From sequence record PX915677.1: a stretch of DNA of 64,000 nucleotides; one strand, written 5' to 3'. The notes below the pieces were generated by a model that made no database searches, was not told the origin of the DNA, and was given only the letters and a program-made list of their open reading frames with translations. Origin of the DNA: a phage. Made by a program: the position numbers and the translations under genes. Positions 46,250-64,000 of the stretch are shown one piece after another. Position 1 is the stretch's first letter. Every line of letters begins with the position of its first letter.

Positions 46250-46255
46250 TCTTAT

Positions 46256-46432: not shown

Positions 46433-46441
46433 TGATATTCC

Positions 46442-46636: not shown

Positions 46637-46792
46637 AGTTCGGCTAGCTCTAGATAGAACTCAGCCTCATCAAGACGACCTTGTTCATTACAGATGGCGC
46701 TCTGACGATAACACCAATCCGATGGCATCTCTTCCACTTCAATCTCCTTGTTACGAACCAATCAATAAGAATAGTTCATTCGTCTTATTTAT

Positions 46793-46987: not shown

Positions 46988-47352
46988 TCAACCTCAATAT
47001 TATATAGAGTTTTCAGTGTATCTTTAATCCAAGCACGTCGTTTTGGATTCTTATGATGTGCCCCGTTTTCCCTATCTCTAAAATATTGATCACATCCGAA
47101 TGGGTATGTTGGGTCAAAAAACTTTTCTTGATTAAACATATTCTTCATGTCGTCAATATCTAAATGCTTTGTGAAATAGTAATACCTCTTATAACAGCGA
47201 AAGTTGAAGCATAATCCTTGATCTTCACTAAACCATTTTGGATAAATTCCAGTCTTAGCTATTTCATAATATTGGAGGAGGAAATCCTCCATCCCCCTCT
47301 CTTTAGCTAAACATCTCAATGTTCTGTAGATGATATTGGTTTCTTTCATCAC
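46984..47352 (-). CDS. Hypothetical protein (122 aa)
   Basis: ORF track. Confidence 0.5.
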   Translation of the reverse strand: MMKETNIIYRTLRCLAKERGMEDFLLQYYEIAKTGIYPKWFSEDQGLCFNFRCYKRYYYFTKHLDIDDMKNMFNQEKFFDPTYPFGCDQYFRDRENGAHHKNPKRRAWIKDTLKTLYNIEVE

Positions 47353-47357
47353 TCACC

Positions 47358-49202: not shown

Positions 49203-49218
49203 TTTATACTCCTTTAAA

Positions 49219-49641
49219 TTATTGGTAAAGTAAATCTGTAAATGCTTGATTATCTTCTACTACATTCAGCATAGTTGCTTCATCACTATAAGCCCTAACC
49301 GTCCCATTGACAACTGTCCAAGGAGGGGGCGGAGGGGGTGTATGTGTAGCTCTGGCTTCACGAGGTTGTTCTCGTACCAGATGAGCCACTACTCTCTGAT
49401 TAGCAACCTCTTCCCTTTCTCGAATAGCTCTTTGAATGTAAGCCAGCTTCATACCCCAAGCTTCTTCAAACTCCTGAGGGTGCTTATCACTGATAACCAC
49501 ATACTGACGTTCAGGAATACCAGAGCGAATCTCTGATAATAATTCATGAAACAAATCCAGTTCATGCTCAGTGAGATTCATTTCAATATCATCCCACTTT
49601 AGAACTAGGAAACGGTTTTGGTGTCTAGCTGGTAATGGCAT
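49219..49641 (-). CDS. Hypothetical protein with poly-Pro linker
   Basis: ORF track. Confidence 0.5.
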   Translation of the reverse strand: MPLPARHQNRFLVLKWDDIEMNLTEHELDLFHELLSEIRSGIPERQYVVISDKHPQEFEEAWGMKLAYIQRAIREREEVANQRVVAHLVREQPREARATHTPPPPPPWTVVNGTVRAYSDEATMLNVVEDNQAFTDLLYQ

Positions 49642-49644
49642 AAC

Positions 49645-49929
49645 TCAACCTCTTGGGAATGGCATCAAAAATTCCACAGCAGATTTAATTTCATTATTGA
49701 TTCTTGAATCACGATAAGAGATAAACTTACCTTTACTATCACGTAACATTACATGGGTTCTGGCTGTTTTGTGAGGGAGCAATGTGATACTAGTTGGAAT
49801 GGCATCAATCCCTACAGCGTATTTGTCAATAGTCTTACTTTCAGCCAACAGATAAGACCAAGTACGCGGTTTCTGCTCCGGGCGGTTAGGGTATGTGTCC
49901 CGAATCTGAACCATAGCTAATTTATTCAT
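49645..49929 (-). CDS. Small protein, paralogue pair member A
   Basis: Shares KTARTxVxLRxxxGKFISY...AVExLxPFP with 49931..50185. Confidence 0.55.
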   Translation of the reverse strand: MNKLAMVQIRDTYPNRPEQKPRTWSYLLAESKTIDKYAVGIDAIPTSITLLPHKTARTHVMLRDSKGKFISYRDSRINNEIKSAVEFLMPFPRG

Positions 49930-49930
49930 A

Positions 49931-50185
49931 TTAAACTCCTTTAGGGAATGGGATGAGATTTTCTACTGCAACACGGAAAGATTTTTCTACGTTCTTATTC
50001 TTATAAGAAATGAATTTACCATCAGCACCACGAAGGATTACATTAGTGCGAGCTGTTTTTGGGTTAATCCCAATCATCCGTTCGATGATCTTGTTTGATT
50101 TGTTGTGGTGGTTAGTGAAAGTCCACTTAACAATCTTGCCATCTCTGGTTACATCAAAAATATTTACGATTTTTACAATAGACAT
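49931..50185 (-). CDS. Small protein, paralogue pair member B
   Basis: See 49645..49929. Confidence 0.55.
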   Translation of the reverse strand: MSIVKIVNIFDVTRDGKIVKWTFTNHHNKSNKIIERMIGINPKTARTNVILRGADGKFISYKNKNVEKSFRVAVENLIPFPKGV

Positions 50186-50220
50186 ATTTATTACCTAAGA
50201 AGTTTATTTTGGTTTATATA

Positions 50221-50248
50221 AAAGAAAAGGCCACCCATTTGGGTAGCC
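50221..50248 (-). terminator. Intrinsic terminator (minus strand)
   Basis: GGCTACCC(aaat)GGGTGGCC with one G-U pair, then TTTTCTTT on minus strand. Confidence 0.5.
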
Positions 50249-50253
50249 TCATA

Positions 50254-50571
50254 TTACGATGAGCTTAAAGCTCCTTTGCGTGCTCCAGCTGCTTTTCCAG
50301 CTCGATCACCACTTTTGCCGCCGTTTGAACGGTTTGAGCTGACTGATTCAACACGTAAGTTGCTTGACGCATTAGAGCCTCCAGACTTGACAGCTCGTTT
50401 GTGTCCAACGTCTTTACCTCTGACAGCAGCTTTTCCATCGCGCTTTTCAACGATGCGACGTGCACGGTGGCGCTGAGCATCTCCGCTCTTGCTCCCAACG
50501 CCTGTTTCACCACGGGCAATTGCGGTACGTCTTTCTTGTGCATAATCTCTCTTTCCTACATGATCTGCCAT
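50254..50571 (-). CDS. Highly basic Gly/Ser/Arg/Lys-rich low-complexity protein (105 aa)
   Basis: AAGGAG RBS 7 nt upstream; own promoter motif and terminator; resembles KGG-repeat stress proteins (weak, by eye). Confidence 0.6.
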   Translation of the reverse strand: MADHVGKRDYAQERRTAIARGETGVGSKSGDAQRHRARRIVEKRDGKAAVRGKDVGHKRAVKSGGSNASSNLRVESVSSNRSNGGKSGDRAGKAAGARKGALSSS

Positions 50572-50607
50572 TTAAAACTCCTTAATATATCAGTGTACAC
50601 TAAGGAG

Positions 50608-50616
50608 TATACATTA
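50608..50616 (-). promoter_or_regulatory. TAATGTATA promoter motif, minus orientation
   Basis: Plus strand tatacatta; 37 nt upstream of start at 50571. Confidence 0.45.
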
Positions 50617-50627
50617 TAAGTTACTGT

Positions 50628-51365
50628 TTAAGCTTTCTTTTCCATTGCTTTAACAATCGCCTTACAGAAACCAGAACGAACAATATCATCTGATTCACCA
50701 TCTACAATCTCAGCAAACTCATACAGATCGTGTTCATCAATAAAGTTAGTAGCCCAAGTTAGACCACTCTCGCGACCACGCATATCATGCTGGTTTGTAT
50801 CACCCATACAGAACAATTGAGAGGTTTCTCCCAATCGAGTCATGATGGAGAAGGCTTCATCCTTAGTTGTGTTCTGGAACTCATCAACAATAACAATAGC
50901 ATCATTGAAAGAACGACCACGGAGATATTCCAGAGGTACAAACTCAATGTTACCATTTCCGATTTGGCATTCATAGAATCCCTTACCATATCGCTGAGTA
51001 ATAACATCAATGATAGGCATCAGGTAAGGCTCAAACTTCTCACGCATTCCTCCCGGAAGTAACCCAAGAGAGTTTCCCATGCCAACCGAAGGGCGACTCA
51101 GAATGATCTTCTGAATCTTACCACTCTTCAGTGCATCGATAACCGTGGAAGTGATTACAAAGGTCTTACCACAGCCCGCAGGAGCGTCTGTGAACACAAC
51201 TTGTTTAGTCTTAATAGCATTGAGTAGCTCAGACTGAAACTGGTTCTGAGGGACTACAGGCTTTGCTAAAACCACCTCTTCATACTCTCGCTTACCTTTA
51301 CGAGTAACAAGTGCTTCCCGACGAAGGTCTTTCCGTGATTCTTTCCGTGATTGACGACGACTCAT
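50628..51365 (-). CDS. phoH: PhoH-like ATPase
   Basis: Walker A APAGCGKTF, Walker B IVIVDEFQN, size and pattern typical of phage PhoH. Confidence 0.7.
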   Translation of the reverse strand: MSRRQSRKESRKDLRREALVTRKGKREYEEVVLAKPVVPQNQFQSELLNAIKTKQVVFTDAPAGCGKTFVITSTVIDALKSGKIQKIILSRPSVGMGNSLGLLPGGMREKFEPYLMPIIDVITQRYGKGFYECQIGNGNIEFVPLEYLRGRSFNDAIVIVDEFQNTTKDEAFSIMTRLGETSQLFCMGDTNQHDMRGRESGLTWATNFIDEHDLYEFAEIVDGESDDIVRSGFCKAIVKAMEKKA

Positions 51366-51547
51366 TTACGCTCTCCAATTTCTTCGTAATGACACTCAGT
51401 AGTTAAGCAGTCTTTACAGATTGCTGTATAAACCCTGACGTTAGTAAATCGTTTGTTCTTCCCTTTGGTTGGAGAGCCTTTGGCAAGCTCTCTGATAACC
51501 TTGTTACTTAAGTGAAGGTTTGTTCCTTCACATTTAGAGCACTTCAT
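51362..51547 (-). CDS. Small zinc-ribbon protein
   Basis: CSKCEG ... CKDC pairs. Confidence 0.5.
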   Translation of the reverse strand: MKCSKCEGTNLHLSNKVIRELAKGSPTKGKNKRFTNVRVYTAICKDCLTTECHYEEIGERK

Positions 51548-51863
51548 GGTTCATATCTTTATGAATCCTGTAAACAGCTGTCGCCATACAAGCAACAGCC
51601 TCGTTGTGTGGGAGGTGCATCCCTGTAGAACCATCCCAATCTTTGAACTCATTGTCAAAGACTCCGGTAGGCTCTGGATATAGAGCTTGCAGCTCCACTA
51701 GATCATTAGCAACTTGTTGCCATTTATCATCAGACCAGATAGGGTCATCCAACCAGTAATACAAATAGGAATGGATGATCAATTGCCTTCTATGCCGATT
51801 TATTACTTCAGCGGGACTTATCTCACTTCCATTTGAAGTCCTAAATGTATTACTGTCAATCAT
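51534..51863 (-). CDS. Hypothetical protein with segment resembling NAD-dependent ligase domain Ia
   Basis: HSYLYYWLDDPIWSDDKWQQVANDLVEL compared by eye with LigA N-terminus [28 protein letters not shown]. Confidence 0.45.
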   Translation of the reverse strand: MIDSNTFRTSNGSEISPAEVINRHRRQLIIHSYLYYWLDDPIWSDDKWQQVANDLVELQALYPEPTGVFDNEFKDWDGSTGMHLPHNEAVACMATAVYRIHKDMNHEVL

Positions 51864-52114
51864 TTTACAACCTTAAATTTGAATGTTGTTGGGTGGTAAT
51901 AGTGCAATCTATTGATAGTGTGCTTTGTTTCAAGGTATATCCTGCAAGAGTGGCACATGACATGGGTCAGACCAGTTACAGGGTTAGGTTTGAAGTTGGC
52001 GACAGGCTTCTCTTTCTTACAGAAGCTACAGACTTTCTTTTCCATCTTTTCTCCAGTGGTCAACGAATTGCTGAAACACTTTATGGTCGAATGTGAAACC
52101 GCGAGCAATCCCAC
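51860..52114 (-). CDS. Small zinc-finger protein (true start probably internal)
   Basis: CSFC...CHSC pairs; ORF-track start overlaps neighbouring gene. Confidence 0.45.
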   Translation of the reverse strand: MGLLAVSHSTIKCFSNSLTTGEKMEKKVCSFCKKEKPVANFKPNPVTGLTHVMCHSCRIYLETKHTINRLHYYHPTTFKFKVVK

Positions 52115-52259
52115 ATTCTACGAAAGTAGAAGGCATATAGTCTACATCATCTTTAGATGTATGACCATAAACTTGAATAAGCTTTTTAATCTTATCCTTC
52201 TCTCTTCGAGGAAGCATCCTAAATGCCTCCTGAATATCTGTAATATGTTTGATTTTCAT
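52026..52259 (-). CDS. Hypothetical small protein
   Basis: ORF track; AGGAA RBS. Confidence 0.5.
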   Translation of the reverse strand: MKIKHITDIQEAFRMLPRREKDKIKKLIQVYGHTSKDDVDYMPSTFVECGIARGFTFDHKVFQQFVDHWRKDGKESL

Positions 52260-52271
52260 CAGAAATTCCTG

Positions 52272-52406
52272 CTAATCCTCTGGATTATGAGAACAGCAAT
52301 ACTCACATACCCCGCAACATGGACAAATTTCTACACTTGGGTCATATGCATCATCCACTGTCATTCCGCACTTGGTACAGAACACGTCGTCATCTTCTTC
52401 CAACAT
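52272..52406 (-). CDS. Cys-rich mini-protein (44 aa), below ORF-track cutoff
   Basis: TAATG stop-start coupling with upstream gene; MLEEDDDVFCTKCGMTVDDAYDPSVEICPCCGVCEYCCSHNPED. Confidence 0.4.
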   Translation of the reverse strand: MLEEDDDVFCTKCGMTVDDAYDPSVEICPCCGVCEYCCSHNPED

Positions 52407-52654
52407 TAATTCTCCAAACAAGAATCATTCATCAGTAGCTCCAAACTATCAAGTGTGTAGTAATAACCAAAGAATGGGGCTGTTGACTTGGAAACCTTTT
52501 TATCAAAAAGAGATTGAGAAAGATTTATTTCTACTCCAGCATCTTCAAGCTGTTGTTTTGTAGGGTAGTCAGTGAAAGAGCAAAGTACTTCTCTGTCCTC
52601 CCCTCTGTCCGTTTCTTCGACACGACTCAGAATCCAAATACTTTTACTAGCCAT
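52406..52654 (-). CDS. Hypothetical small protein (start moved to MASKSIW)
   Basis: GGAGAG RBS; sits 2 nt after ThyX stop. Confidence 0.45.
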   Translation of the reverse strand: MASKSIWILSRVEETDRGEDREVLCSFTDYPTKQQLEDAGVEINLSQSLFDKKVSKSTAPFFGYYYTLDSLELLMNDSCLEN

Positions 52655-52656
52655 TT

Positions 52657-53313
52657 TTAACTCTCCACAGTTTTCTTCAGAGCTGCCCATGAGATTGGGT
52701 AGAGTTTAGCCATCTCTTCATCCAGAGATTTAGCAAACACTCGAACTTCATATTGAGCGTGAGATGAGAGTCGCTGACGACACAACTCAAACCAGCCATA
52801 CAAAGAACCAGTCCACACCCACTCAGTGATCATCCCCTGAGGAAGAACAAATCGAGCTTGCTCTGGTGCAATAAATTCAATCAACTTGTCATATGCTGCT
52901 AGAGAAGCTTCATATGCATCGTTAATCAGCATTAATGCTTCAGCTCGCTCTCCGTTGATGAGTTGAATCCCTGAACCTGCATGGAGGTCCGAAGGTCTCG
53001 CAAAAATCTCTTTAGGGATGAAGACTTCAACTGCTCCATCTTTATACCGCCGGGACATTTCGTTCCACGAGAATCCAACCTGATGCTTCTGTAGTTGACG
53101 AGCGATTGCAATTGGAGCCTTACAACGAAAGGACACTTGTGGGTGACGGAACGGAGTGCAGTGTTTCTCTCTAGCCAAGAAGTTAATCAGCCTAGTATCA
53201 CGATCATTCAAATCACCCTCTCGTACAACACCAAAAGAAACTCTTGCAGCATTAACAACAGTTTTATCACTGCCCATAGCTTCAATCAATGTTGCTTGCA
53301 ATTGTTCATTCAT
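52657..53313 (-). CDS. thyX: ThyX-like (flavin-dependent thymidylate synthase family) protein with altered signature motif
   Basis: VNAARVSFG, TPFRHPQVSF, KAPIAIARQL, SHAQYEV blocks align with ThyX; signature position reads KHQ-x8-S where ThyX has RHR-x7-S. Confidence 0.65.
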   Translation of the reverse strand: MNEQLQATLIEAMGSDKTVVNAARVSFGVVREGDLNDRDTRLINFLAREKHCTPFRHPQVSFRCKAPIAIARQLQKHQVGFSWNEMSRRYKDGAVEVFIPKEIFARPSDLHAGSGIQLINGERAEALMLINDAYEASLAAYDKLIEFIAPEQARFVLPQGMITEWVWTGSLYGWFELCRQRLSSHAQYEVRVFAKSLDEEMAKLYPISWAALKKTVES

Positions 53314-53785
53314 ACTTCAACTTCTCCTTGTTATAAGCAATCTCTGCTTCCTCTGGAGTATGGAAAGTTCCTAAATGCTTAGTCTTTCCGTTAACTCCGA
53401 TTATAGCTCTGAATTTTGTACCACTAGCCGTCTCTCTGATGTAAACACCCATTGGAAGTTTTCCAGCTTTTCCGGCTCTATTGTATTGTTTTCTGTTATG
53501 ACAGTTTGTAGATGGGTCAACATCTCTTAGGTTTTTAAGAGAGTCATCCAGTTTAATCTGGTTGATGTGATCAATCTCAAACTCAGGCATCTTTCCATAA
53601 GAGAAAAACCAAGCTAATCGACATGCTCTGTAAGATTTCCCTTCATAATAGATGTACCTGTAACCTAATGTTGAGACACACCCAGCAATGTTCCCTGATA
53701 CTCTCCTACCTTTGGTATTCTTCCACCTAAAGATTCCAGTATCAGGGTCATATGCTAAGTCTTCTTTTATCTTATCAGTTAACAC
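53306..53785 (-). CDS. HNH homing endonuclease with AP2-type domain
   Basis: FEIDHINQIKLDDSLKNLRDVDPSTNCHN plus AP2-like C-terminus. Confidence 0.7.
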   Translation of the reverse strand: MLTDKIKEDLAYDPDTGIFRWKNTKGRRVSGNIAGCVSTLGYRYIYYEGKSYRACRLAWFFSYGKMPEFEIDHINQIKLDDSLKNLRDVDPSTNCHNRKQYNRAGKAGKLPMGVYIRETASGTKFRAIIGVNGKTKHLGTFHTPEEAEIAYNKEKLKYE

Positions 53786-54050
53786 CTAAAGCTGTATCCA
53801 AAAATGCTTTCAGGTTTGCTTCAGTCTGCATACCAGAGAGGCTGTAATGTGTTCCACTGTTACGGTCAGGTACAACAAAAGCAGGGATGCTTCGTACACC
53901 ATACTTAACAGCTTGTTCACGACCATCACCTTCAAGGATGTTAATCTCTTCCACTTCTACATCAAACTCCTTAACAACCTTCTCAAAGGTAGGAGCCATT
54001 GCTTTACATGGAGCACACTGATCACTATAAAACTTAATTACTTTAGGCAT
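53775..54050 (-). CDS. Thioredoxin-fold protein (CxxC = CAPC)
   Basis: KFYSDQCAPCKAMAP near N-terminus, about 90 aa. Confidence 0.65.
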   Translation of the reverse strand: MPKVIKFYSDQCAPCKAMAPTFEKVVKEFDVEVEEINILEGDGREQAVKYGVRSIPAFVVPDRNSGTHYSLSGMQTEANLKAFLDTALGVN

Positions 54051-54058
54051 GTAAATCC

Positions 54059-54238
54059 TTATGCAGTCAGGAGGTGAAGCAGGAATGGGATAACAACAGC
54101 TACGATAACCATGATAGTTGATGCTGTTTGAATCTCACCTTTCTTATCAGGAGTTTCTTCAATAAGCTTACCAGAAGCCCAATAAATACCACCACCAATA
54201 AAGATAGCCCAAATACCCCATACGATTGCTGATAACAT
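54059..54238 (-). CDS. Small two-TM membrane protein (59 aa), below ORF-track cutoff
   Basis: AAGGA RBS; MLSAIVWGIWAIFIGGGIYWASGKLIEETPDKKGEIQTASTIMVIVAVVIPFLLHLLTA. Confidence 0.35.
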   Translation of the reverse strand: MLSAIVWGIWAIFIGGGIYWASGKLIEETPDKKGEIQTASTIMVIVAVVIPFLLHLLTA

Positions 54239-54298
54239 ATATCTATATCCTTATAAATAAGTTCGCCCCACCTCGGGTTAGGAGACAGGGCGGAGGTT

Positions 54299-54862
54299 TT
54301 AGTAAGACACGTCACCACTTGAATGGGACATGTTGCTCTTGACGAAGTAGCAATACTTGCCAAGACCTTCATTAATTTCTTGAAGCATACTCTGATCGAC
54401 AGGGTAAGTGGCTAAATCGCCATCAAACTCATCCATCTTCTCAATAATACACATCAAGGTCATGCACATATCAGAGAGCATACCGTCCATGTCTAGATCA
54501 GCATTACCCTCTGAGAACCAAGCGTGGGATAGGTAGTTAGCTGCTGTAGCATCCACTTTAACACAGTGGTATCGCATACGTTCAGCAATACGATCTCCTA
54601 CTTGTCGTGCGTAATCTTCCAGCTCATCAAACATACCATGAACACCCTGAAATCCTGCACCAGAAACGTTCCAGTGGTAGTTCTTAGCTTTGATATGCAA
54701 GAGTTCCATGTTAGCTTGTAAGCAGCTCAGGATGTGTTCTAGGCTGTTTGCACTAATCATGCCTTGCATTGTTTCAAGGCGAGAGATTGAAAGCTCAGAC
54801 CGGTCTAACATACTATAACTGTCACGACCAATCTCAGGTAAATCAAAGACATTCTTATGCAT
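54299..54862 (-). CDS. Dps/ferritin-like protein (start moved to Met with GGAGAA RBS)
   Basis: NYHWNVSGAGFQGVHGMFDE matches Dps ferroxidase-site region (E. coli Dps AHWNMRGANFIAVHEMLDG, from memory). Confidence 0.55.
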   Translation of the reverse strand: MHKNVFDLPEIGRDSYSMLDRSELSISRLETMQGMISANSLEHILSCLQANMELLHIKAKNYHWNVSGAGFQGVHGMFDELEDYARQVGDRIAERMRYHCVKVDATAANYLSHAWFSEGNADLDMDGMLSDMCMTLMCIIEKMDEFDGDLATYPVDQSMLQEINEGLGKYCYFVKSNMSHSSGDVSY

Positions 54863-55184
54863 TTGGGTTTTCTCCATCAAGTTCAACTGAGTTAGCAACA
54901 TTACGTGCAATATTATCCATTACCTGCTGGGTAATTACGATGCAGTTCTGTGGGTCTACTGACTTAGAACGCCCCATTTCAGGGTCATACACCTTAACTC
55001 GCTTAGCAGTTGAACCTGTGACCTGAAGAACCTTCAACAGATATCCCTGATTACCAATAGACCAAGCAACAACATCACGATTCTTGATAAAGCGACCAAG
55101 CATATCACGATGATAAAACTGTTGCATCACCTTGGATTTTGTAATCTCTTCAGTGGGCGGGGCCACTTTACTCAAATCTAACAT
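54855..55184 (-). CDS. Hypothetical protein (109 aa)
   Basis: ORF track; AAATGTATA variant motif about 45 nt upstream. Confidence 0.5.
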   Translation of the reverse strand: MLDLSKVAPPTEEITKSKVMQQFYHRDMLGRFIKNRDVVAWSIGNQGYLLKVLQVTGSTAKRVKVYDPEMGRSKSVDPQNCIVITQQVMDNIARNVANSVELDGENPNA

Positions 55185-55256
55185 AACTCTCTCCTGTAAA
55201 ATACAAATTCTTATTGTACTCTATATACATTTGAGAGTTATCATATCTACTACCAA

Positions 55257-55466
55257 TCAGTAGTAAATTACTTTAGACATAAAAGAACCAGTGTTAGGGT
55301 CTTCATACCAGCGATGTATGTCAGCGCTTTTTACTATTGTGCCCAGAGTCTTCAACTGTTTCTTAGCAATACGAGCCTCTTTGCGAGTGTCAAACAATTT
55401 GATGTTATCTTTTCTCATGTGTTGCTCAAGATTCCAAACAACATGAATAGCCCACATCTTTTTCAT
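55257..55466 (-). CDS. Small protein, member 3 of tandem triplicated family
   Basis: Shared TRxxARxxKK core and C-terminal SKV(I/Y)Y. Confidence 0.55.
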   Translation of the reverse strand: MKKMWAIHVVWNLEQHMRKDNIKLFDTRKEARIAKKQLKTLGTIVKSADIHRWYEDPNTGSFMSKVIYY

Positions 55467-55675
55467 TAGTAATGTACCTTTCCGCTAATATAAACACGAC
55501 CAGAGGAATACTCTCTGGCCTTATGAATACTGATGCTCTTGATCATATCCATATTAAACATAGATTTTTTAAAATCTCGAGCTTGTTGGCGAGTGGGTAG
55601 TGCAGTCATAGTCATGCCACCTGATGCCCACTTAATCTTTGCTAACCAAAATTGTCTCATGGTGATTGGTCTCAT
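55466..55675 (-). CDS. Small protein, member 2 of tandem triplicated family
   Basis: Shared core, C-terminal GKVHY. Confidence 0.55.
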   Translation of the reverse strand: MRPITMRQFWLAKIKWASGGMTMTALPTRQQARDFKKSMFNMDMIKSISIHKAREYSSGRVYISGKVHY

Positions 55676-55872
55676 TAATAATAAACCTTACTGTTAACAC
55701 AAAAAGCACCTTCACTATTCACGATAGCTTTTCCTAGTGTAACCTTATTAAGTCTAAAAGTAGATTTGTATTGATTTTTGACCCTACGTGCGTGCTCTCG
55801 AGTCTTAACAAAATCTACAGCTACTAACTCTCCAGTCGTGTTGTCATGTACACGAACAATCCACTTTTTCAT
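55675..55872 (-). CDS. Small protein, member 1 of tandem triplicated family
   Basis: Shared core, C-terminal SKVYY; translationally coupled to dcd. Confidence 0.55.
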   Translation of the reverse strand: MKKWIVRVHDNTTGELVAVDFVKTREHARRVKNQYKSTFRLNKVTLGKAIVNSEGAFCVNSKVYY

Positions 55873-56406
55873 TTACACACCTTTAGATGCAACCACACCT
55901 TCAGAGTTATTATAACGACCCTTCACTGCGTAGGAATGTTCCCCTGCATGAGAGTGCTCAAACATAACCATTTGACCAACACGCATACCAGCACGAACTC
56001 GTAAGCTGTGGTGCTTGGTTACGTTATGGAATTCAAATGTCAGCTTACTGCTATTAAATCCTGCATCTGCCCAACCGGCGTGAAGGTGGTTCAAACCACA
56101 ACGAGCCATAGACGAACGCAAAACAAACAGGCTTGAGATGTTATCTGGAAGGTTAAACTCCTCCATAGAGTGAGCCAAGAAGAACTGACCCGGAGTGATA
56201 ACCAAACCCTCTTCAGGAATCTTTACTTCCTTCCACTGAAGATTCTCTTTCGCATCAATATCAACGATGCCATCAGCCTGTTCTTCAACAAGGATAGTAT
56301 CACCAATACGGATATCCACACTAGCAGCGTTAACATATTTATGCTCCGCATCCAGATAACCATTGTCAATTACATCGTGCAGTTCAATACTTCCTAGTAA
56401 ACCCAT
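55873..56406 (-). CDS. dcd: dCTP deaminase family protein
   Basis: NAASVDIRIG and GWADAGFNSSKLTFEFHN match Dcd-family motifs. Confidence 0.75.
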   Translation of the reverse strand: MGLLGSIELHDVIDNGYLDAEHKYVNAASVDIRIGDTILVEEQADGIVDIDAKENLQWKEVKIPEEGLVITPGQFFLAHSMEEFNLPDNISSLFVLRSSMARCGLNHLHAGWADAGFNSSKLTFEFHNVTKHHSLRVRAGMRVGQMVMFEHSHAGEHSYAVKGRYNNSEGVVASKGV

Positions 56407-56415
56407 TCTTATTCC

Positions 56416-57729
56416 TTAGTTATTTTCGTCTATTTCAAAAGAGATTCCACGACCCGCTTCATCGGCAAACCGAACTGTACGGGTTTGAGGCTGCAACACT
56501 TCAGGGTTGTTGGCAACAAATTGATCAGCGAGACTATCTCCCAAATCCTGTTCCATATCTTCATCAGTCCACACAGCCCTAACAGGTGCGTTGATATCAC
56601 CAACAGCGAAACCCTGACCAGAGAACTGACGTGCGCTAACAGTTAAGCCGTTTGGTCGACCACGAGAGGGTCTAGCCATCCATCGCTCCATAGAATCACT
56701 TGTAATACCAAGAGCTTCTTCAAAAGATGTTCTACGAGTAGGGCTTTCTCTTCGTGACTCTTGTGCTCGACGCATTGCAGGGGCTACAAACACCCCTTCA
56801 ATTGCATTGTGTCGGTTAGGTTCCTCTTCTCGACCAAGCAGATCACCACCCGTGTTAGTCGTTAAATTTGTCAACCCCTCAGACCAATACGCATGAATCT
56901 GACCAGAACCGTGAAGACTAGACATAATCTGAATCTCTTCATAAGGGATTCCAAAGAATCGACTCATGTCTCGGTTAACACAATATAGAGCACTTGTTGT
57001 ATCTTCAATAAGAGAAACCTGACCTAATCCATTGACTAGATGACTAACTGGCTGAGGTGTGGGAAGATATCGAGTTTGGGCCATGTATTGATGCGCAACT
57101 GCTGGAGAGGAAAATCTCAACACTTGTGAGTTAGGCCACTTCTTGTGAACATACCTGATTTCACGACTAGAAACAACCACTGGACAAGGGGAAGTCATAG
57201 CCAAATATCCGTGAGAAGTCATGAATAAGTTGTCAAGAGTCATCGCACCACGGCACATCATAGGAAAATTATCCAATACCTCTTCAATAGAAGTAGGATA
57301 ATTAAACATGAATTGGATACGAACCCCATTCCACTGAAACTCAATAATATCAGTGAATGTTAATTGAGAACCCCCAGCATAGGATTCGTTTGTAGCTTCA
57401 GCAAGAAGTGATGCATATTCAATATCTTGTGACTCTAGCCATTCCTTCACATTACTTTCAATCTCCCGTCCAAGCTCTTGCCAACGATCAGTTGGGATGA
57501 AAGTGTTTTGAGTTCTTGGTGTTTGTCCTCTGACAATAAAGATATCAATGTCATGTGGAGCTATGTTATTAAGGACAGCATCACGAACAGCCCCACCAGT
57601 AATGATGGGACAGATACCATCTGGAATCAAGTTGTTGTTAATCAACTGTTCAATGAAGTGACGACCAACAGTGATATCAGGTTGTTGAGCAACCTTATCT
57701 TCAATTTGGTTAATCGGGATAACAATCAT
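56416..57729 (-). CDS. Pol-beta superfamily nucleotidyltransferase with CCA-enzyme/poly(A)-polymerase-like head motif
   Basis: ITGGAVRDAVLNNIAPHDIDIF (GGxVRD ... DxD); remainder lacks recognisable CCA-enzyme neck/body motifs; Arg-rich C-terminal region; start moved to ATG 57729. Confidence 0.6.
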   Translation of the reverse strand: MIVIPINQIEDKVAQQPDITVGRHFIEQLINNNLIPDGICPIITGGAVRDAVLNNIAPHDIDIFIVRGQTPRTQNTFIPTDRWQELGREIESNVKEWLESQDIEYASLLAEATNESYAGGSQLTFTDIIEFQWNGVRIQFMFNYPTSIEEVLDNFPMMCRGAMTLDNLFMTSHGYLAMTSPCPVVVSSREIRYVHKKWPNSQVLRFSSPAVAHQYMAQTRYLPTPQPVSHLVNGLGQVSLIEDTTSALYCVNRDMSRFFGIPYEEIQIMSSLHGSGQIHAYWSEGLTNLTTNTGGDLLGREEEPNRHNAIEGVFVAPAMRRAQESRRESPTRRTSFEEALGITSDSMERWMARPSRGRPNGLTVSARQFSGQGFAVGDINAPVRAVWTDEDMEQDLGDSLADQFVANNPEVLQPQTRTVRFADEAGRGISFEIDENN

Positions 57730-57730
57730 T

Positions 57731-58288
57731 TTACATTTTCCAATATAATGAAGGTGGGTCGTAAGGGTCAAATCCCGTGAGTTCACACAAGAAAAGATAA
57801 ACCTTAACAGTCAAGTTAACGTCCTGTTCACAATAAGTAAACATATCTTCAGTGAAAGCATCCCATGCTTCCTCTTGCTCACCGTAGTCACCTTTAAGTT
57901 CCTCTAAGAACTCACCCCATTGCTTCAAGCCGTGACCTCTTGGGCCACGTCTAGGGTCGCCTTTCGGATACTCAGGACTGTCGCCAATACGGTCAGGTTT
58001 AAGATATCGACTAAGACATAAAGTGTCAAAGACGTTAAAATTATATTTAATCAAAGAGGGATACATCTTCTTCAGAGCAGGTAAGTCGAAGTCAATAATA
58101 TTATGACCCACTAGTACATCTGCTTCTGTCAGTTTACGAATCCCGTCTTCAATTTGGTGAGGCCGATAGCCCCACCTTTCACCAGTTTCAACATCGAAGA
58201 TATAAATACACCATACTTTAGTTATGTCATCGTACAGTGCATTACTCTCGATATCGAATGCAAACACTTTCTTCTTTTTCTTTACCAC
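57731..58288 (-). CDS. Stand-alone DEDD (DnaQ-like) 3-prime to 5-prime exonuclease
   Basis: Exo I FAFDIESN, Exo [12 protein letters not shown], Exo III YCEQDV. Confidence 0.8.
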
Positions 58289-60072
58289 GGTGAAGCTCCA
58301 TCTGCTTGGTTGACGAGAGAAGCTGCATCCTCTCCGTTAGTTAAAACGAATGGATTATCTTCATCAACTTCAAAGTCTTCCCTTTCTACAAGTCTACCGG
58401 TTTCGCTGATATACTTAGTATAACAGACACCTGTCTGACCGTAGTTACGTTCTTTCAGTAATCGAATGACTGAGAGGTTCTTAGCTAAGCCGTCAGCTTG
58501 CTTATCACGCTCAAAGCCAATGATACACTGACACCAACGCATAAGAGAACGAGAGCCAGTGAACTGTACTTCACGTACCTGTCCACCTTCTTCATGAGGA
58601 GCACCACCTGCCGGAGCATTAAGGTGAGATAACACGAAAGCGGTAAAGTCTAATTCTTTACACATACCAGCAAGCTCGGAAGCAATCTTACTGATTTCAG
58701 TGTTAATCTCTGAAGGTGTTAAATGAGATACCAGAGCGGTAATGTTATCAAGGATGATGAACTTACACTGGTTTTCAACTACCCAGAAACGGATACACTG
58801 TTTAATGTCTTCCCATTCATTCTGTCCGAAGTTGTCATACAAGAAGAATTTGTCTGCATAACGAAGTGCTTCATTACGCAAATCTTCCTCGTCATATTCA
58901 ACATCAGGTCGGTGGAAAGGAATTGATGCTGACTTACCAGCAATGTTCTTAACAGACATGCCTACCTTCTCTTCCAAGAAGAAGCCACCTCCATTAAAAC
59001 CATGCTCTAAGCACAGATGAGCAACCAGCTCGTGAGCAATGAGTGTTTTACCACTCCCTACTCCACCACCAATTGCTACCACCTCTCCCCATCGAATACC
59101 GAAGGTCATCTCATTCAGAGTCTTCCACGGATACGGGATACCCCACTCCGCTTTCTTCAGAGCATCATCAAGACAATCAAAGATTGTTACAGCACCAGCA
59201 GGAGATTCCCGCTTTGCTGAATACTTGAGAATGTTGAATAACTCTTGACCACGACCAGACAGAAGCATGTCATTCGCATCCTTAATCTCTTTCTCCACAC
59301 CGTTGTATGGGAAGGTTCCTTTAGGAATACGAGCAAACTTGACATGAGGGAATAAAGAACGACCTTTTGTTAAAGCTATCTCACCTGCATCATCGTTGTC
59401 CATGCAGAGCACAACCTCCTCAAAACCATTTACGAAGTCTCGGTTACGAGACAACACAGAAGAGATTGAACCTGCACCGAACGGTAAAGAAACACATGCT
59501 GGTTTAATGTTTGTTGCATTTGTAAAAGCTGTAAGGACATGGAAACCTGACATACAGGATAGCGGGTCTTCAAAAATGAAGAGCTTCTTGTTGTACACAT
59601 CTCCACGTTGAGCTTGTGCCATACCAAACAAATCTGCTTCTTTCACACTGCCGACGTAATAGAACTTCTTACTATCTAGCAGCTTAACCTCGTACCCGAC
59701 AATGTTTCCATCACGTTCACGAGGAAAGAAGTAACTGTCTGGTGTCTGACCATCAGTTTGACTCAGACCAATGCGACACTCAAACCGCTCTGATACAGCT
59801 TTAGGGATTAAACGGCGAGTGAGTTCACCCTGAGGAAGCTCTAAGCAATCATCTAAGACTTCTCTCAACTCTTCAGGGGATAACTCTTTCTTCTCGTTTG
59901 GAGTAGGTGTAGTGCCCTTTTCGAACACTTCGTAATTCCCACAACGGTTACAACTTCCCCACTCCTCACCAGTCTCTTCGTTACGGAAGAGAATCATGTG
60001 GTTGTGGGTTTTATCACGACCATGAGAGATACATTCCTTACAACCTGTGTCTCCCAAAATGATCTTTGACAT
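58282..60072 (-). CDS. Primase-helicase (T7 gp4-like)
   Basis: N-terminal Cys4 zinc finger, TOPRIM-like acidic motifs (EDPLS, DNDDAGE), DnaB-type Walker [10 protein letters not shown] and Walker B IILDNI. Confidence 0.85.
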
Positions 60073-60098
60073 GCTCTTCCTCCTTGGAATCCTTGAGC

Positions 60099-60302
60099 TT
60101 AGTAGAACGAACGAATTTCATCCCACACTTGTTCCTGTTCTTTCCTATAAAAAGAAAGTTGGGTCTTGAACATCTCCACTGATGATTCAAAGTTTTTGGT
60201 TTGTGCAGCTTCAACGAAACGTTCATGTCGGTTGATTTTGCACCGTAGCATTAAATACTTGGCTTCAAGTCTCCGAAGAGCCTGCCTTTTCTCAAGATTC
60301 AC
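60099..60302 (-). CDS. Hypothetical small protein
   Basis: ORF track. Confidence 0.45.
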   Translation of the reverse strand: MNLEKRQALRRLEAKYLMLRCKINRHERFVEAAQTKNFESSVEMFKTQLSFYRKEQEQVWDEIRSFY

Positions 60303-60711
60303 TTTTCAGATACTCTGACCAGTCGCCAGATTCAACCAGAACATCTTGTTCTTCGTCGATGTGATAAATCCAAGCGATAACAGTTTCACCTGAGTCCATC
60401 TTAACAGCAATCTGAGTACGCTGATAGAAGCTGTCTTCAGGGCTACGTTTGTTGTAACCTTCCAGACGGTCATACGGACCTTCCAGACCTGCTTTGTCAG
60501 TAGCAAACACTTCTACACGAACAGGCTTATTGTTATTGCTGTGTGCGAGAGAGATGCTCGGGAAGTAGGAACCACCATAACGGAACAGATCAAAGTTGTC
60601 TTCAGTCCAACCTTCACCAATCGACTTAGCACCAGCTCGGTCATTAACTAAATAGTTAGCTTGACCACGACGAAGAGAACCATAAGTTGCTACGTAAATT
60701 ACTTCTGACAT
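60292..60711 (-). CDS. Gamma-glutamyl cyclotransferase-like (AIG2/GGCT fold) protein
   Basis: N-terminal VATYGSLRRGQANY matching the YGSL motif of GGCT/AIG2 family; 139 aa. Confidence 0.6.
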   Translation of the reverse strand: MSEVIYVATYGSLRRGQANYLVNDRAGAKSIGEGWTEDNFDLFRYGGSYFPSISLAHSNNNKPVRVEVFATDKAGLEGPYDRLEGYNKRSPEDSFYQRTQIAVKMDSGETVIAWIYHIDEEQDVLVESGDWSEYLKSES

Positions 60712-60712
60712 T

Positions 60713-60922
60713 TTAAATACCTTTCCAGTCTTTCATGATGTTTTCAATGTAAGCACACTGCTGATCAGTGGCTCCTGTTACAAACACTTCTAACCCCAAC
60801 TGCTCACAGAAGGGATTAAGAATCAATATTCTGGTTTGCCCATACGAGTGATGCTCTCGGTAGATAACACACCCAGCATCCCATACAGAATCAATGGCTT
60901 TACTCAATCTTTCATGTTTCAT
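60713..60922 (-). CDS. Hypothetical small protein
   Basis: ORF track. Confidence 0.45.
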   Translation of the reverse strand: MKHERLSKAIDSVWDAGCVIYREHHSYGQTRILILNPFCEQLGLEVFVTGATDQQCAYIENIMKDWKGI

Positions 60923-60975
60923 AAAACCTCCAGCTTATCCGAACTAGCCTCCTCTTTCGAAGAGGCTAAAGCAGA

Positions 60976-61161
60976 TTACTCTGTAATAAAGATTTTGATT
61001 ACACCACAGATTGCTGCACTCTCAAATACTGCAACAGCTTCACTCCCCTGAAAGAAGGCCACTTTGCCGTCAGAGAAGTTAAACATGTCAGCATCTAGGT
61101 CCATAGCTCGCATATCACCAGCGTCGTTAGTATCTTTAAACAGAACTTTATACTTATTCAC
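60976..61161 (-). CDS. Hypothetical small acidic protein
   Basis: ORF track. Confidence 0.4.
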   Translation of the reverse strand: MNKYKVLFKDTNDAGDMRAMDLDADMFNFSDGKVAFFQGSEAVAVFESAAICGVIKIFITE

Positions 61162-61406
61162 AGATAGGTCACTCCTTTGTCTTGTTGTGCTTCAGAGATG
61201 ATACGTTCTACACATTCCATAGAATACTTATCACCACGTTTCAGGAAAGTTACAATTGCAGAGAATTGATTACCAATCATTCGCTGATTAGTAATACCCC
61301 ACTCCTCACACAACTTACGCAACTCTTTACGAGAGCCTACAATCAGAGGCTCTTTTTGTTCCATCATTCCATTTTGTACTAGATCTTCCAATGAAAACAT
61401 ATCCAT
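61158..61406 (-). CDS. Hypothetical small protein
   Basis: ORF track; ATGA coupling. Confidence 0.45.
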   Translation of the reverse strand: MDMFSLEDLVQNGMMEQKEPLIVGSRKELRKLCEEWGITNQRMIGNQFSAIVTFLKRGDKYSMECVERIISEAQQDKGVTYL

Positions 61407-61412
61407 ATATCC

Positions 61413-62615
61413 TTAGTAGTTTACAACAGTGCCATCGTTCAGGGTAAGGCTATTAATCTGCAACACACGACCAAGCTGACGATCACTAATTGGTGCGTTC
61501 CATCCAGAGCGGTAGAAGTTACGACCACAGAAGAACAAGATCACATTACTTGCTACAGTCGAACCGTTTTCAGGATGCTTGATGTTAGCGATATAATAAC
61601 CACGACGCAGATTACGACGGGTTACTGGGTTGATCTCTAACCCTTGCTCTTCAACTTGCATTGTTTCAGGAACAGGTTCCGAAGATTCTTCAGCAACTGG
61701 CTCGGAGCTTTCCCCTGATAGTGCGTAATCCTCATCACCTGCTGGTGAAAATGTTTCTTCTACTTCTTCCACAGGAAGTTCGTATGCAACACGATAGTCA
61801 GGCTCAACACCAGAGAAGCTCTTAACAAACTCAACGATGTTGTGAGTGTAAGTTTCCAGAGTTGTTCCAGTCAGTCCCGGAGCTGTGTTAACTTCCAGAA
61901 CCCAAGCGTTAGTATTTTTACTAATCAGGTCAACAGCACCAAAGTTCAAACCCAGAGCAGATACAGCTTTGTGAGCTTGAATCAGAACTTGATCAGGAGG
62001 CGCGTCAGTGAAGGCGTTAGAATAAACCCAACCAGTATGATGGTTACGAATATCTTCACGATAGGTTGACAGATCGCGGTAACCGTTACGACGAATCTTC
62101 TTCTGAACGTAAGTGATAACACCTTCGAACACATGAACACGCCATTCACGACGTGGGCCTTGGATGCCTTTGGTGTACAGAGGAGCATCCGCAACACCTT
62201 CTCGCGCAAGACGAACAGTAATACCTTCTCCAGAGTGACCAGTTAAGGTTCCACGTTCATAAACAATTTCATTCCGGTTCCAGTTCTGAGCTACTTCACG
62301 ATCGACGGTGTATTCAACAGTTTTGACTTCAGCTAAACGCAGTGCGTTAAATGCTGCAACTTTGTTAGCCGCTCGGTTCAAGGCAACCACAGAGTTCAAC
62401 ACAGTTGCGCCACCGAAGAAAGCATCATTGTATCGACGGTTTCCGTAGTTGACAACAATATCACCAACACGAGAACGGTAACGAGAACCCTCTGATACCA
62501 GAGACATTACGTTAGCATTTAAGCGAAGTTCCTGAATCTTAGTGTTAATTGCAGAAGTAAGTTCACGAACTGAATCAGAAGGGCCATAAGGAAGAACACG
62601 GATACGAGTAGTCAT
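61413..62615 (-). CDS. ATP-grasp family ligase with acidic linker and extra C-terminal domain (400 aa)
   Basis: GAVDLISKNTNAWVLEVNTAPGL matches ATP-grasp C-terminal signature; substrate unknown. Confidence 0.6.
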   Translation of the reverse strand: MTTRIRVLPYGPSDSVRELTSAINTKIQELRLNANVMSLVSEGSRYRSRVGDIVVNYGNRRYNDAFFGGATVLNSVVALNRAANKVAAFNALRLAEVKTVEYTVDREVAQNWNRNEIVYERGTLTGHSGEGITVRLAREGVADAPLYTKGIQGPRREWRVHVFEGVITYVQKKIRRNGYRDLSTYREDIRNHHTGWVYSNAFTDAPPDQVLIQAHKAVSALGLNFGAVDLISKNTNAWVLEVNTAPGLTGTTLETYTHNIVEFVKSFSGVEPDYRVAYELPVEEVEETFSPAGDEDYALSGESSEPVAEESSEPVPETMQVEEQGLEINPVTRRNLRRGYYIANIKHPENGSTVASNVILFFCGRNFYRSGWNAPISDRQLGRVLQINSLTLNDGTVVNY

Positions 62616-62617
62616 TG

Positions 62618-62842
62618 TTAGATACCTTTAAGTTTAAGAATTTCGTTACGAGTTTTTTGAATCTGAGCTTCAATTTCGAAGTAGTCATTGAACGCATCGT
62701 TCTCTACTTCATCGGATGGTGCATCAATCAGACCGAAAGCGAACGGATACAGCTTTCGCTGCTCCGTTACTAATTCGATATGAACTCCTATGTAATACTG
62801 TAGGAGAGTAATCTTCGGTTTCTTAGGAACCAGATTTGACAT
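62618..62842 (-). CDS. Hypothetical small protein
   Basis: ORF track. Confidence 0.45.
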   Translation of the reverse strand: MSNLVPKKPKITLLQYYIGVHIELVTEQRKLYPFAFGLIDAPSDEVENDAFNDYFEIEAQIQKTRNEILKLKGI

Positions 62843-63056
62843 GAGGTTCTACCTTAATGCCTTTGATTTTTACATAATCAGCAAGCACGTTGTTGATCAC
62901 TGTTGGGAAAGGAACCTCAACCTGTGTTTCAAGTACTTGACCAATACCAGCTTGCATCCACTTTTGGATTGCACGAAGGTTATCACATCCTGTGCTCGTC
63001 ATCGGGATACGTCGAGTAGTTACAACGTTATCCAGCATCATCTTACGAATTTCCAT
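62823..63056 (-). CDS. Hypothetical small protein
   Basis: ORF track. Confidence 0.45.
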   Translation of the reverse strand: MEIRKMMLDNVVTTRRIPMTSTGCDNLRAIQKWMQAGIGQVLETQVEVPFPTVINNVLADYVKIKGIKVEPHVKSGS

Positions 63057-63058
63057 AC

Positions 63059-63952
63059 TTAACCTCTATTCAATGAACATTTAGGAGAATTACAATAAAC
63101 TTGATTCATAGAACCAAGCGTACAACTTTCAGCATCGCGCCACGGAATCTGCTTAAAACACTCTGAGCAGTATCCGAGGGTTGACCACATGGCTTTGGTG
63201 AAGTCAGTGCTTCGGTTTCCGTCGAAGCTGACAACAGTTTTTCGGAGAGCTGTTCGTGATTCAGGAAACACACCTGCTTTCTCAGCAGGTTCCTCCTTTT
63301 TTGGCTTAGTTGAGATTGCAAAAATACTGTTGCTACGTTTCTCAACATAAGCATCAACAACATCCTCCAGAGTGATGCCTGTCTGTTTCGCTGATGAAGG
63401 TAATATAGTCATACGACCAATCATTTCTTCAGTTACACGTAAAGCAAACTCGGGACGACGGGCGTTTGTTGTATCTGTTGCTTTAATCCATACATAACCA
63501 TCTTTGATCGTAGCATTAGATACTTTCTTCTTTACTTCTACAGCGCAGACTTTACAGATATCTTCACCACGAAGACGACTAAGTTCATCATCGAACTCAT
63601 TCTCTGTTTTAACTTCACCACAGATTTCACAAACACCAATAGGAGTTTCCTCCTCTTCTTCCTCTTTAGGTTTAGTCAAACCTTCCAGACATTCAGGATG
63701 CCAATAGCACTGATATGCGAAGACTGCTTTAGGTGCATCCTTCCAATCAATGTGTTTGTCACAACCACCACAATCACCATGAGAGTGTGCTTCCCAGAAT
63801 TTACGAGTGATAGTAACGCCGTTCTTGTTGACGAAACTATCATTCATATCAAAAGGGATATCATCATCGAAGTCAGCAGTAGTTGACTCAGGCTCCTTTT
63901 TCTCCAGAGATGGGTCAACAAAACGACCTGCTGTGATCACTAAGCGAACCAT
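63059..63952 (-). CDS. Cys-rich protein with multiple CxxC pairs (297 aa)
   Basis: ORF track; several zinc-finger-like Cys pairs. Confidence 0.55.
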   Translation of the reverse strand: MVRLVITAGRFVDPSLEKKEPESTTADFDDDIPFDMNDSFVNKNGVTITRKFWEAHSHGDCGGCDKHIDWKDAPKAVFAYQCYWHPECLEGLTKPKEEEEEETPIGVCEICGEVKTENEFDDELSRLRGEDICKVCAVEVKKKVSNATIKDGYVWIKATDTTNARRPEFALRVTEEMIGRMTILPSSAKQTGITLEDVVDAYVEKRSNSIFAISTKPKKEEPAEKAGVFPESRTALRKTVVSFDGNRSTDFTKAMWSTLGYCSECFKQIPWRDAESCTLGSMNQVYCNSPKCSLNRG

Positions 63953-64000
63953 AGCATTAACTTCGGAGATGCAGGATACTGTCCCACGGTAAACAATTTT

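Follow-up and report, generated by a model that had tools for sequence, protein, structure and literature searches.

A gamma-glutamyl group is added and later removed in three known pathways, those of butirosin (BtrJ/BtrG), putrescine (PuuA/PuuD) and ergothioneine (EgtA/EgtC). Gamma-glutamyl amides are typically made by ligases of the glutamine synthetase (GS) fold (GS, GshA/GCS2, PuuA), and LysX and BtrJ are ATP-grasp enzymes that make bonds of the gamma-glutamyl type. RimK and MptN add glutamate through its amino group, and a gamma-glutamyl cyclotransferase (GGCT) cannot cut the resulting bond. Peptidase_C26 is the family of gamma-glutamyl hydrolase and PuuD. Among phages, the closest described system is the phiEco32-type amidoligase cassette, referred to as a 'seven-gene peptidoglycan modification cassette' in the relevant passages of PMC5498523 and PMC10580990, where it is credited to Iyer 2009 and Hardies 2013 and its carriers are given as phiEco32, 7-11, PA11, tf, LUZ24, PaP3, CW02 and RIO-1. 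Here we analyse a stretch of 64,000 nucleotides of phage DNA (sequence record PX915677.1; hereafter the window) in which an initial annotation had singled out an ATP-grasp ligase gene (61413..62615, minus strand) and a GGCT-like gene (60292..60711, minus strand) as a pair that might add and remove gamma-glutamyl groups.

The pair is a fragment of this already known, bioinformatically described cassette, and as first reported it adds nothing to the published description. The window belongs to a Kuravirus (Gordonclarkvirinae) and shares about 97% identity with published genomes of that genus, and the 6-kb stretch around the pair is 95-97% identical to that of about 60 published Escherichia and Shigella phages, including TH38, SGF2, NJ01, phiEco32 and SU10 (the last at 96% identity), the relatives being prolate podophages of the C3 morphotype (phiEco32/SU10-like, infecting E. 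coli). Gene content and order match the cassettes of phiEco32, SU10, PaP3, LUZ24 and 7-11, and in Pfam the system is represented by PF14395 ('Phage phiEco32-like COOH.NH2 ligase-type 2') and PF12224 (Amidoligase_2). The complete order is two genes of unknown function, a COOH-NH2 ligase, a further unknown, an Amidoligase_2 protein, a class-II amidotransferase, the ATP-grasp ligase and the GGCT, followed by the primase/helicase, so that two GS-like ligases lie within the cassette. The window covers only the last third of this series, with the C-terminus of the amidotransferase, the ATP-grasp ligase and GGCT. The genes beyond the window end are represented in SU10 by gp090, gp089, the COOH-NH2 ligase (PF14395), gp087, the Amidoligase_2 protein (PF12224) and the 676-aa class-II amidotransferase gp085, which matches GATase_6 (E=1e-14) and whose N-terminal MCG nucleophile is kept in relatives. 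While the initial annotation knew of no described function for such a pair, the cassette has been described from phiEco32, after which PF14395 is named, and is predicted in the same passages of PMC5498523 and PMC10580990 to modify peptidoglycan peptides.

Co-occurrence was examined in 25 loci with an ATP-grasp homologue, searched with iterated profiles. The class-II amidotransferase and the PF14395 COOH-NH2 ligase are present in all of them (25/25 each) and the PF12224 amidoligase in 24/25, the exception being cut by a contig end, whereas GGCT is found in 18/25. These first three are the obligate partners of the ATP-grasp ligase, and GGCT is frequent but dispensable. The pairing predicted for related phages is therefore widespread, with direct adjacency in PaP3 and LUZ24, but confined to 18 of the 25 loci, and the idea of a self-contained two-gene system gives way to a larger assembly. 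In the wider phage collection the ATP-grasp protein occurs in 312 of 50,697 records and GGCT in 178 (window query) or 210 (PaP3 query), and the record counts of the two are equal in Escherichia (94), Proteus (8), Salmonella (7), Cronobacter (6) and Shigella (3). The cassette is carried by several hundred sequenced phages, whose hosts are E. coli, Pseudomonas, Salmonella, Vibrio, Aeromonas, Proteus and marine bacteria. Across phage families about 8 kb of genome is retained at 28-40% identity. Clostridium prophages likewise pair amidoligases with the same GGCT PHROG family (PMC11318856), and in SU10 the ATP-grasp ligase, amidotransferase, GGCT and amidoligase (gp82, gp85, gp78 and gp86) have been detected by mass spectrometry and are listed as early products (PMC4281155).

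Directly downstream of the cassette come the primase/helicase and the split DNA polymerase genes. Kuravirus, Salmonella phage 7-11, PaP3 and LUZ24 share its order, at 28-40% identity, with differences in the spacing of the last two genes. In PaP3 and LUZ24 GGCT abuts the ATP-grasp gene, the three small open reading frames (ORFs) that separate the pair in the window being absent, and is followed by a small ORF, the primase/helicase and the polymerase exonuclease subunit; in 7-11 thirteen small ORFs are inserted between ATP-grasp and GGCT within the same cassette order. The cassette of the Zobellviridae is rearranged yet stays together, GGCT coming first in HP1, while CW02 keeps the succession ATP-grasp, three small ORFs, GGCT.

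The best evidence obtained here for a gamma-glutamyl removal step comes from cassettes that lack GGCT. Those of TC6/PA11, Rhizobium phage RHph_N3_19 and Klebsiella phage KpnP_VR7901 carry instead a protein of about 205 aa of the Peptidase_C26/class-I amidotransferase type (Pfam E=1e-12 to 1e-17), a gene found in loci L014, L015, L022 (CW02), L023 (TC6), L024 (RHph_N3_19) and L025 (KpnP_VR7901). GGCT alone is present in 17/25 loci, C26 alone in 5/25, both in 1/25 (CW02) and neither in 2/25. The same tendency appears in the collection, where Pseudomonas records number 120 for ATP-grasp against about 105 for GGCT plus 16 for C26, and Vibrio records 22 against 4 plus 15, these counts being sums over related genomes rather than independent events. 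All three GGCT/C26 states are contained in the Zobellviridae, and the pattern is therefore not merely a deep phylogenetic split. This near-complementarity supports the view that cleavage of a gamma-glutamyl amide is integral to the pathway. The substitution, which points to gamma-glutamyl removal as a required step, and a linker motif resembling the tag of transfer-messenger RNA (tmRNA), taken up below, are what the present analysis adds to the published description, and they make the question of function more testable.

The identity of the ATP-grasp protein (400 aa, equivalent to SU10 gp082) was borne out by PHROG 2599 (E=4e-185), by its fold and by its Mg/ATP-binding triad. Its AlphaFold model has a mean predicted local distance difference test score (pLDDT) of 86, and Foldseek searches of the PDB gave a probability of 1.00 and E-values of about 1e-13 to 1e-11 for Ddl, ArgX/LysX, RimK and PsnB, a ligase of ribosomally synthesized and post-translationally modified peptides. 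The top matches are D-Ala-D-Ala ligases, and the best TM-scores are those of RimK (5zct) and ArgX (3vpb). Homologues were collected (n=626, nearly all on phage-sized contigs) and 53 of these aligned; the resulting profile reaches only RimK chains in the PDB (E=8e-7), with the metal-binding segment VD...EVN aligned. Among the 53 sequences the Mg/ATP residues D229, E241 and N243 are invariant, as are K85, K173 and R121 and, elsewhere in the core, H127-S-G-E-G131, E157, R159, Q171 and R190-N191. The protein is a genuine and probably active ATP-grasp ligase, judged from its intact catalytic residues and modelled fold. Family-level matches are weak, with Pfam RimK (PF08443) at 19.2 bits against a cut-off of 21, the Ddl-type family (Dala_Dala_lig_C) likewise below threshold, and the MptN and RimK families of NCBIfam at 30-32 bits against cut-offs of 143-350 (TIGR00768 30.2 against 143.4), and PRK10446 at 23.5 against 331. 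The protein is thus nearest to the alpha-L-glutamate ligases (RimK, MptN), yet outside every characterised family. It shares the ATP-grasp fold and the Mg/ATP-binding residues with the RimK/MptN/CofF/LysX family, but scores far below the curated cut-offs, is structurally as close to D-Ala-D-Ala ligases and has an additional linker and barrel; the PHROG name 'ribosomal protein S6 glutaminyl transferase' is a transferred annotation only.

The extra acidic linker and C-terminal domain noted at the outset were also recovered. The catalytic core, supported by the 53-homologue alignment and Foldseek, comprises aa 1-285 (61761..62615, minus strand). It is followed by an acidic, proline-rich linker at aa 286-333 (61617..61760, minus strand), in which residues 288-329 are disordered (pLDDT <50), and by a small beta-barrel at aa 334-400 (61416..61616, minus strand), a confidently modelled six-stranded domain.

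The second enzyme, of 139 aa and equivalent to SU10 gp078, was assigned to the AIG2/GGCT group from the start, and this holds. Pfam GGACT (PF06094) is matched with 63.6 bits against a gathering threshold of 22.8 (E=3e-17) and PHROG 2520 with E=1e-44, and the family profile matches E. coli YtfP (3e-11), B. subtilis YkqA and mammalian GGACT. The YGSL motif lies at residues 10-13; Y10, G11, L13 and G85 are invariant, and 11 of the 12 sequences keep E84 (in LEGY). The counterpart of E84 in mouse GGACT (1vkb) is the Glu of LDDFED, the catalytic residue of that enzyme. By these sequence characters the product of 60292..60711 is classed as a gamma-glutamyl(amine) cyclotransferase of the GGACT/YtfP type. 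YGSL, the catalytic-type Glu, size and fold class are shared with GGACT, YtfP and YkqA, but identity to these characterised members is only about 20-30% and no NCBIfam equivalog is matched.

Our preferred reading, held tentatively, is that the ATP-grasp ligase and GGCT catalyse two steps of one conserved cytoplasmic multi-enzyme pathway, that of the phiEco32-type amidoligase cassette, expressed early in infection. A GS-like ligase (the COOH-NH2 ligase or Amidoligase_2) would couple an amine of the substrate to the gamma-carboxyl of glutamate at the expense of ATP, and the RimK-like ATP-grasp enzyme would form a further ATP-dependent amide bond via an acyl-phosphate, most likely by placing an amino acid such as glutamate on a carboxylate. 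The class-II amidotransferase might supply ammonia or act as an amidohydrolase, and GGCT would split off an N-terminal gamma-glutamyl group as 5-oxoproline, which leaves the amine free. That group would then be a transient handle or protecting group, as in the BtrJ/BtrG, PuuA/PuuD and EgtA/EgtC pathways. As product we expect above all a small peptide or amine metabolite of the gamma-glutamyl type, possibly a precursor of cell-wall peptides. The gene identities, the intact catalytic residues, the expression of the SU10 orthologues, the conserved linkage and the replacement of GGCT by a C26 hydrolase-type gene are observed, whereas the succession of the steps, the substrate and the advantage to the phage are inferred. 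Knowledge of the substrate of the cassette, described in 2009, would show how a large group of therapeutic-candidate phages acts early on the host cell.

The likeness to the Btr, Puu and Egt pathways lies in the combination of an ATP-dependent ligase with an enzyme that removes the gamma-glutamyl group, and all three kinds of remover (GGCT, C26 and class-II amidotransferase-like) occur in phage cassettes. However, no carrier-protein (BtrI-like), decarboxylase or pyridoxal phosphate-enzyme domains were seen among the neighbours scanned, nor any other Btr, Puu or Egt genes, and the resemblance is an analogy of logic and not one of membership. Because the ATP-grasp protein is nearest to alpha-L-glutamate ligases, and because GS-like ligases are the usual makers of gamma-glutamyl bonds, it need not perform the step that GGCT reverses. 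Add/remove chemistry, as originally proposed, is thus still the best reading, with GGCT replaced by a C26 hydrolase-type gene in some cassettes, but it probably holds for the cassette as a whole and not necessarily for the two enzymes as a pair.

Several points weigh against this pathway. The nearest relatives of the ATP-grasp ligase form alpha-linked glutamate bonds, which GGCT cannot cleave; the absence of GGCT from 7/25 loci shows that it is not strictly required; and much of the co-occurrence could have arisen because the genes descend together with the replication module, and not because they are functionally coupled. In addition, the barrel and linker motif in the large phages look like devices for targeting a macromolecule and not like features of a small-molecule enzyme, and no biochemical or genetic experiment on any cassette gene was found in the literature searched.

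The last but one of these points leads to the strongest alternative, which is nevertheless doubtful, namely that the cassette modifies proteins. The RimK-like ATP-grasp enzyme would here extend a protein of host or phage by amino acids, at its C-terminus or on acidic residues, the barrel and motif would target SspB/ClpXP or tagged proteins, and the GS-like ligases would serve as tagging enzymes akin to Pup ligase. Such a role is in keeping with RimK chains being the sole PDB matches of the family profile, and with the presence among the top structural matches of ArgX/LysX, which work on a carrier protein. It draws also on the linker, which cannot be aligned between lineages apart from one short motif, (S/A)A(D/G/A)DEN(F/Y)AL(A/T/S/P)A, present in about 55 of 121 ATP-grasp homologues, which represent several lineages 37-60% identical and include Salmonella phage 7-11, with a variant in Aeromonas phage BUCT695. 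In the window the motif reads PAGDEDYALSG (61713..61745, minus strand), and in relatives SADDENFALAA or PAGDENYALSA. Compared with AANDENYALAA the window copy matches at 6/11 positions and SADDENFALAA at 8/11, while PAGDENYALSA contains DENYAL exactly; the tag of E. coli K-12 tmRNA as read by ARAGORN is ANDENYALAA. The observed similarity to AANDENYALAA was reached by 0/300 tail shuffles for most motif-bearing sequences and by up to 6/300 for the weakest, and among 3601 six-frame ORFs the motif is confined to ATP-grasp proteins. An origin of the motif in captured ssrA DNA was considered and rejected, there being no nucleotide similarity, and the window carries no tmRNA or tRNA gene.

The C-terminal barrel has the conserved signature G-x-Y...FYR-x-GWN-x-P and is under strong constraint, with a ratio of non-synonymous to synonymous substitution (dN/dS) of 0.02-0.03 against SU10 and phiEco32. 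Divergent copies occur in Salmonella phage 7-11, in Privateer-like phages and in locus L011, and in a profile search the barrel did not turn up as an ORF of its own in phages whose ATP-grasps are short, every match being part of an ATP-grasp protein. Motif and conserved barrel together suggest that the enzyme versions of large phages dock onto a macromolecule. Mimicry of an SspB/ClpX degron by the motif is hypothetical, and a more far-reaching proposal, in which the D-E-N-F/Y-A-L motif mimics the ssrA tag and with the barrel steers the ligase to SspB/ClpXP or ssrA-tagged proteins, so that the ligase and perhaps the whole cassette rewrites C-termini or degradation tags instead of making a metabolite, strikes us as unlikely. 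ClpX requires a free C-terminal LAA and tag position N3 is important for SspB binding, but the motif is internal, about 100 residues before the C-terminus, has G, D or A in place of Asn at tag position 3, and is missing from many homologues. Protein modification as such is further weakened by the 250-296 aa ATP-grasps of Bruynoghevirus and Zobellviridae, which lack linker and barrel although the whole cassette is still present, by the lack of any significant match between the barrel and solved barrels, SspB included, and by the fact that glutamate whose amino group lies inside a peptide bond is not cleavable by GGCT. Nor is there a conserved small carrier or tag protein beside the ATP-grasp gene; a LysW- or Pup-like candidate was sought there and rejected, the upstream ORFs being DUF7195 and coiled-coil proteins, neither with a conserved acidic C-terminus.

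Somewhat less probable is the published prediction, credited to Iyer et al. 2009 (Mol Biosyst 5:1636) and Hardies et al. 2013 (J Virol 87:9189) in PMC5498523, PMC10580990 and PMC11318856 and a sub-case of the gamma-glutamyl pathway, according to which the cassette remodels peptidoglycan stems or their cytoplasmic precursors and so blocks superinfection by other phages. The D-Ala-D-Ala ligases at the top of the Foldseek list fit this prediction, as do the GS-like ligases and the amidotransferase, since the stems hold a gamma-glutamyl bond and amidated carboxylates. However, GGACT-type enzymes require a free alpha-amino L-gamma-glutamyl group, while the D-isoglutamate of the stem is N-acylated, and the cassette showed neither Mur-ligase domains nor signal peptides nor membrane proteins. 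Moreover, the receptor of these Kuravirus phages is the O-antigen (PMC11990801), so a change in the cell wall offers no obvious block to adsorption.

It is also unlikely that GGCT is functionally independent of the cassette, i.e. a stand-alone host-metabolism gene that converts, for instance, glutathione-type gamma-glutamyl peptides to 5-oxoproline and amino acids and owes its position to shared descent. Consistent with independence, GGCT is missing from 7/25 cassettes, lies 4-8 kb from the ATP-grasp gene in 7-11 and the Privateer-like phages, has homologues in Bacillus phages as well, and has as its nearest solved relative E. coli YtfP, a stand-alone gene. On the other hand, it adjoins or overlaps the ATP-grasp gene in Bruynoghevirus, is still part of the rearranged cassette of HP1, and is replaced inside the cassette by the C26 hydrolase-type gene.

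Least likely of all, and indeed very improbable, is the suggestion made with the first description of the pair, that the two enzymes attach an amino acid to a nucleotide or to phage DNA, or process such an adduct. A modification of this kind would explain the restriction resistance of these phages. The constant position of the cassette directly upstream of replication genes and the co-occurrence of amidoligase and amidotransferase genes with thymidine hypermodification genes in some viral metagenome contigs (PMC8989533) are compatible with the suggestion, but genes for a 5-hydroxymethyluracil DNA kinase, an aGPT-Pplase-type protein or a hydroxymethylase were not found, and DNA of phage tf, which carries the cassette, could be digested with five enzymes (RsaI, HpaI, EcoRV, SmaI and HaeIII) and then cloned (PMC3517423). 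No known modification enzyme was seen among the SU10 annotations or in a Pfam scan of ten larger early/middle ORFs, a scan that was not exhaustive, and the authors of PMC11990801 report no known modification pathway in these phages. In favour of an adduct, sites for EcoRV (34 against 16 expected, hence over-represented), EcoRI (11 against about 22) and EcoKI (8) are present in the window, only EcoRI among these three being under-represented, about two-fold, and avoidance of sites alone is therefore unlikely to explain the resistance. Across positions 1..64000, CCWGG (2 against about 84 expected), GATC (116 against 252) and GGCC (50 against 112) are under-represented, PstI (17 expected), BamHI (10) and KpnI (7) sites are absent, and CAGCAG is over-represented (79 against 35). 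The strong avoidance of CCWGG, PstI, BamHI, KpnI and GATC implies DNA that is exposed to restriction. The neighbours cited in favour of a nucleotide adduct, ThyX, Dcd and a nucleotidyltransferase, are indeed present, but the only 'kinase'-like protein found is a PhoH-like ATPase, and ThyX (PF02511, E=1e-43), Dcd and PhoH look ordinary. Knowledge of the substrate of the cassette could bear on the unexplained restriction resistance of the Gordonclarkvirinae.

In the window every gene from about 38 kb to the window end lies on the minus strand, and the pair runs, as had been observed, in the direction of the replication genes. It shares its strand with the primase/helicase (58282..60072, minus strand), which follows the cassette in all lineages examined, and with the genes for the DNA polymerase exonuclease subunit, the nucleotidyltransferase and Dcd. 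The five ORFs first outlined, of 400, 82, 61, 69 and 139 aa, were all confirmed on the minus strand and match annotated coding sequences in SU10. The three between the pair are an 82-aa gp081-like protein (61158..61406, minus strand; PHROG 8339), found only in the Gordonclarkvirinae and three uncultured relatives, a 61-aa gp080-like protein (60976..61161, minus strand; PHROG 8591), found in close relatives only, and a 69-aa gp079-like protein (60713..60922, minus strand; PHROG 13365). The searches upheld both enzymes; the three small ORFs, limited to Gordonclarkvirinae and close uncultured relatives, are not conserved further. Upstream of the ATP-grasp gene lie a 74-aa gp083-like protein, probably a coiled coil (62618..62842, minus strand), and the 77-aa DUF7195 protein (62823..63056, minus strand; Pfam PF23825, E=5e-17). 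The 3' end of the gp083-like gene (AAAGGTATCTAA) forms the ribosome-binding site of the ATP-grasp gene, and that of the gp079-like gene (AAAGGTATTTAA) the ribosome-binding site of GGCT. Both ORFs end (at 62618..62640 and 60713..60735, minus strand) in ...AAAGGTAT(C/T)TAA, 2-3 bases before the next ATG. The Shine-Dalgarno sequences embedded in the two stop regions show a tight translational coupling, and because of them these unrelated small proteins share 'KGI' C-termini.

All of these genes are under purifying selection (dN/dS 0-0.35). The ATP-grasp core (61761..62615) has dS of 0.39-0.43 and dN of 0.10 against SU10/phiEco32, compared with dS of at most 0.16 and dN of about 0 for the genes flanking it (60099..61406 and 62618..63056), and is 87-94% identical to the core of these phages, whereas the neighbouring genes are 99-100% identical. 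The divergent core allele indicates mosaicism and suggests that an ATP-grasp allele was exchanged by recombination within Kuravirus.

DUF7195 proteins stand between the amidotransferase and the ATP-grasp ligase in 15 loci, and PaP3 orf44 and LUZ24 gp20, in the same position, may be divergent homologues; the strand-helix-helix pattern (VVTTRRIPM...GCDNLRAIQKWM...PFPTVINNVLADYVK) suggests a DNA binder of the ribbon-helix-helix type. The class-II amidotransferase is represented in the window by its Cys-rich, zinc-ribbon-like C-terminal 313 residues (63059..64000, minus strand), the gene continuing past the window end. Its C-terminal half (63059..63952, minus strand) is a long extension with several CxxC pairs, and a terminal W-x-D...C...CxxC element, probably a zinc ribbon, is conserved from Kuravirus to PaP3 and the TC6-like phages. 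In SU10 gp089 and gp090 (18696..20877 of locus L001, outside the window) a Cys-Phe/Tyr-Gly motif is conserved about 20-30 residues from the N-terminus; comparison of gp087, gp089 and gp090 with the amidotransferase, GGCT and C26 by hhalign detected no relation. PADLOC models of anti-phage defence gave no match. Further along the minus strand, an HNH endonuclease ORF lies directly upstream of thyX, with a 203-aa protein nearby that has a weak ferritin-like match (E=3e-7; 53306..53785 and 54299..54910, minus strand).

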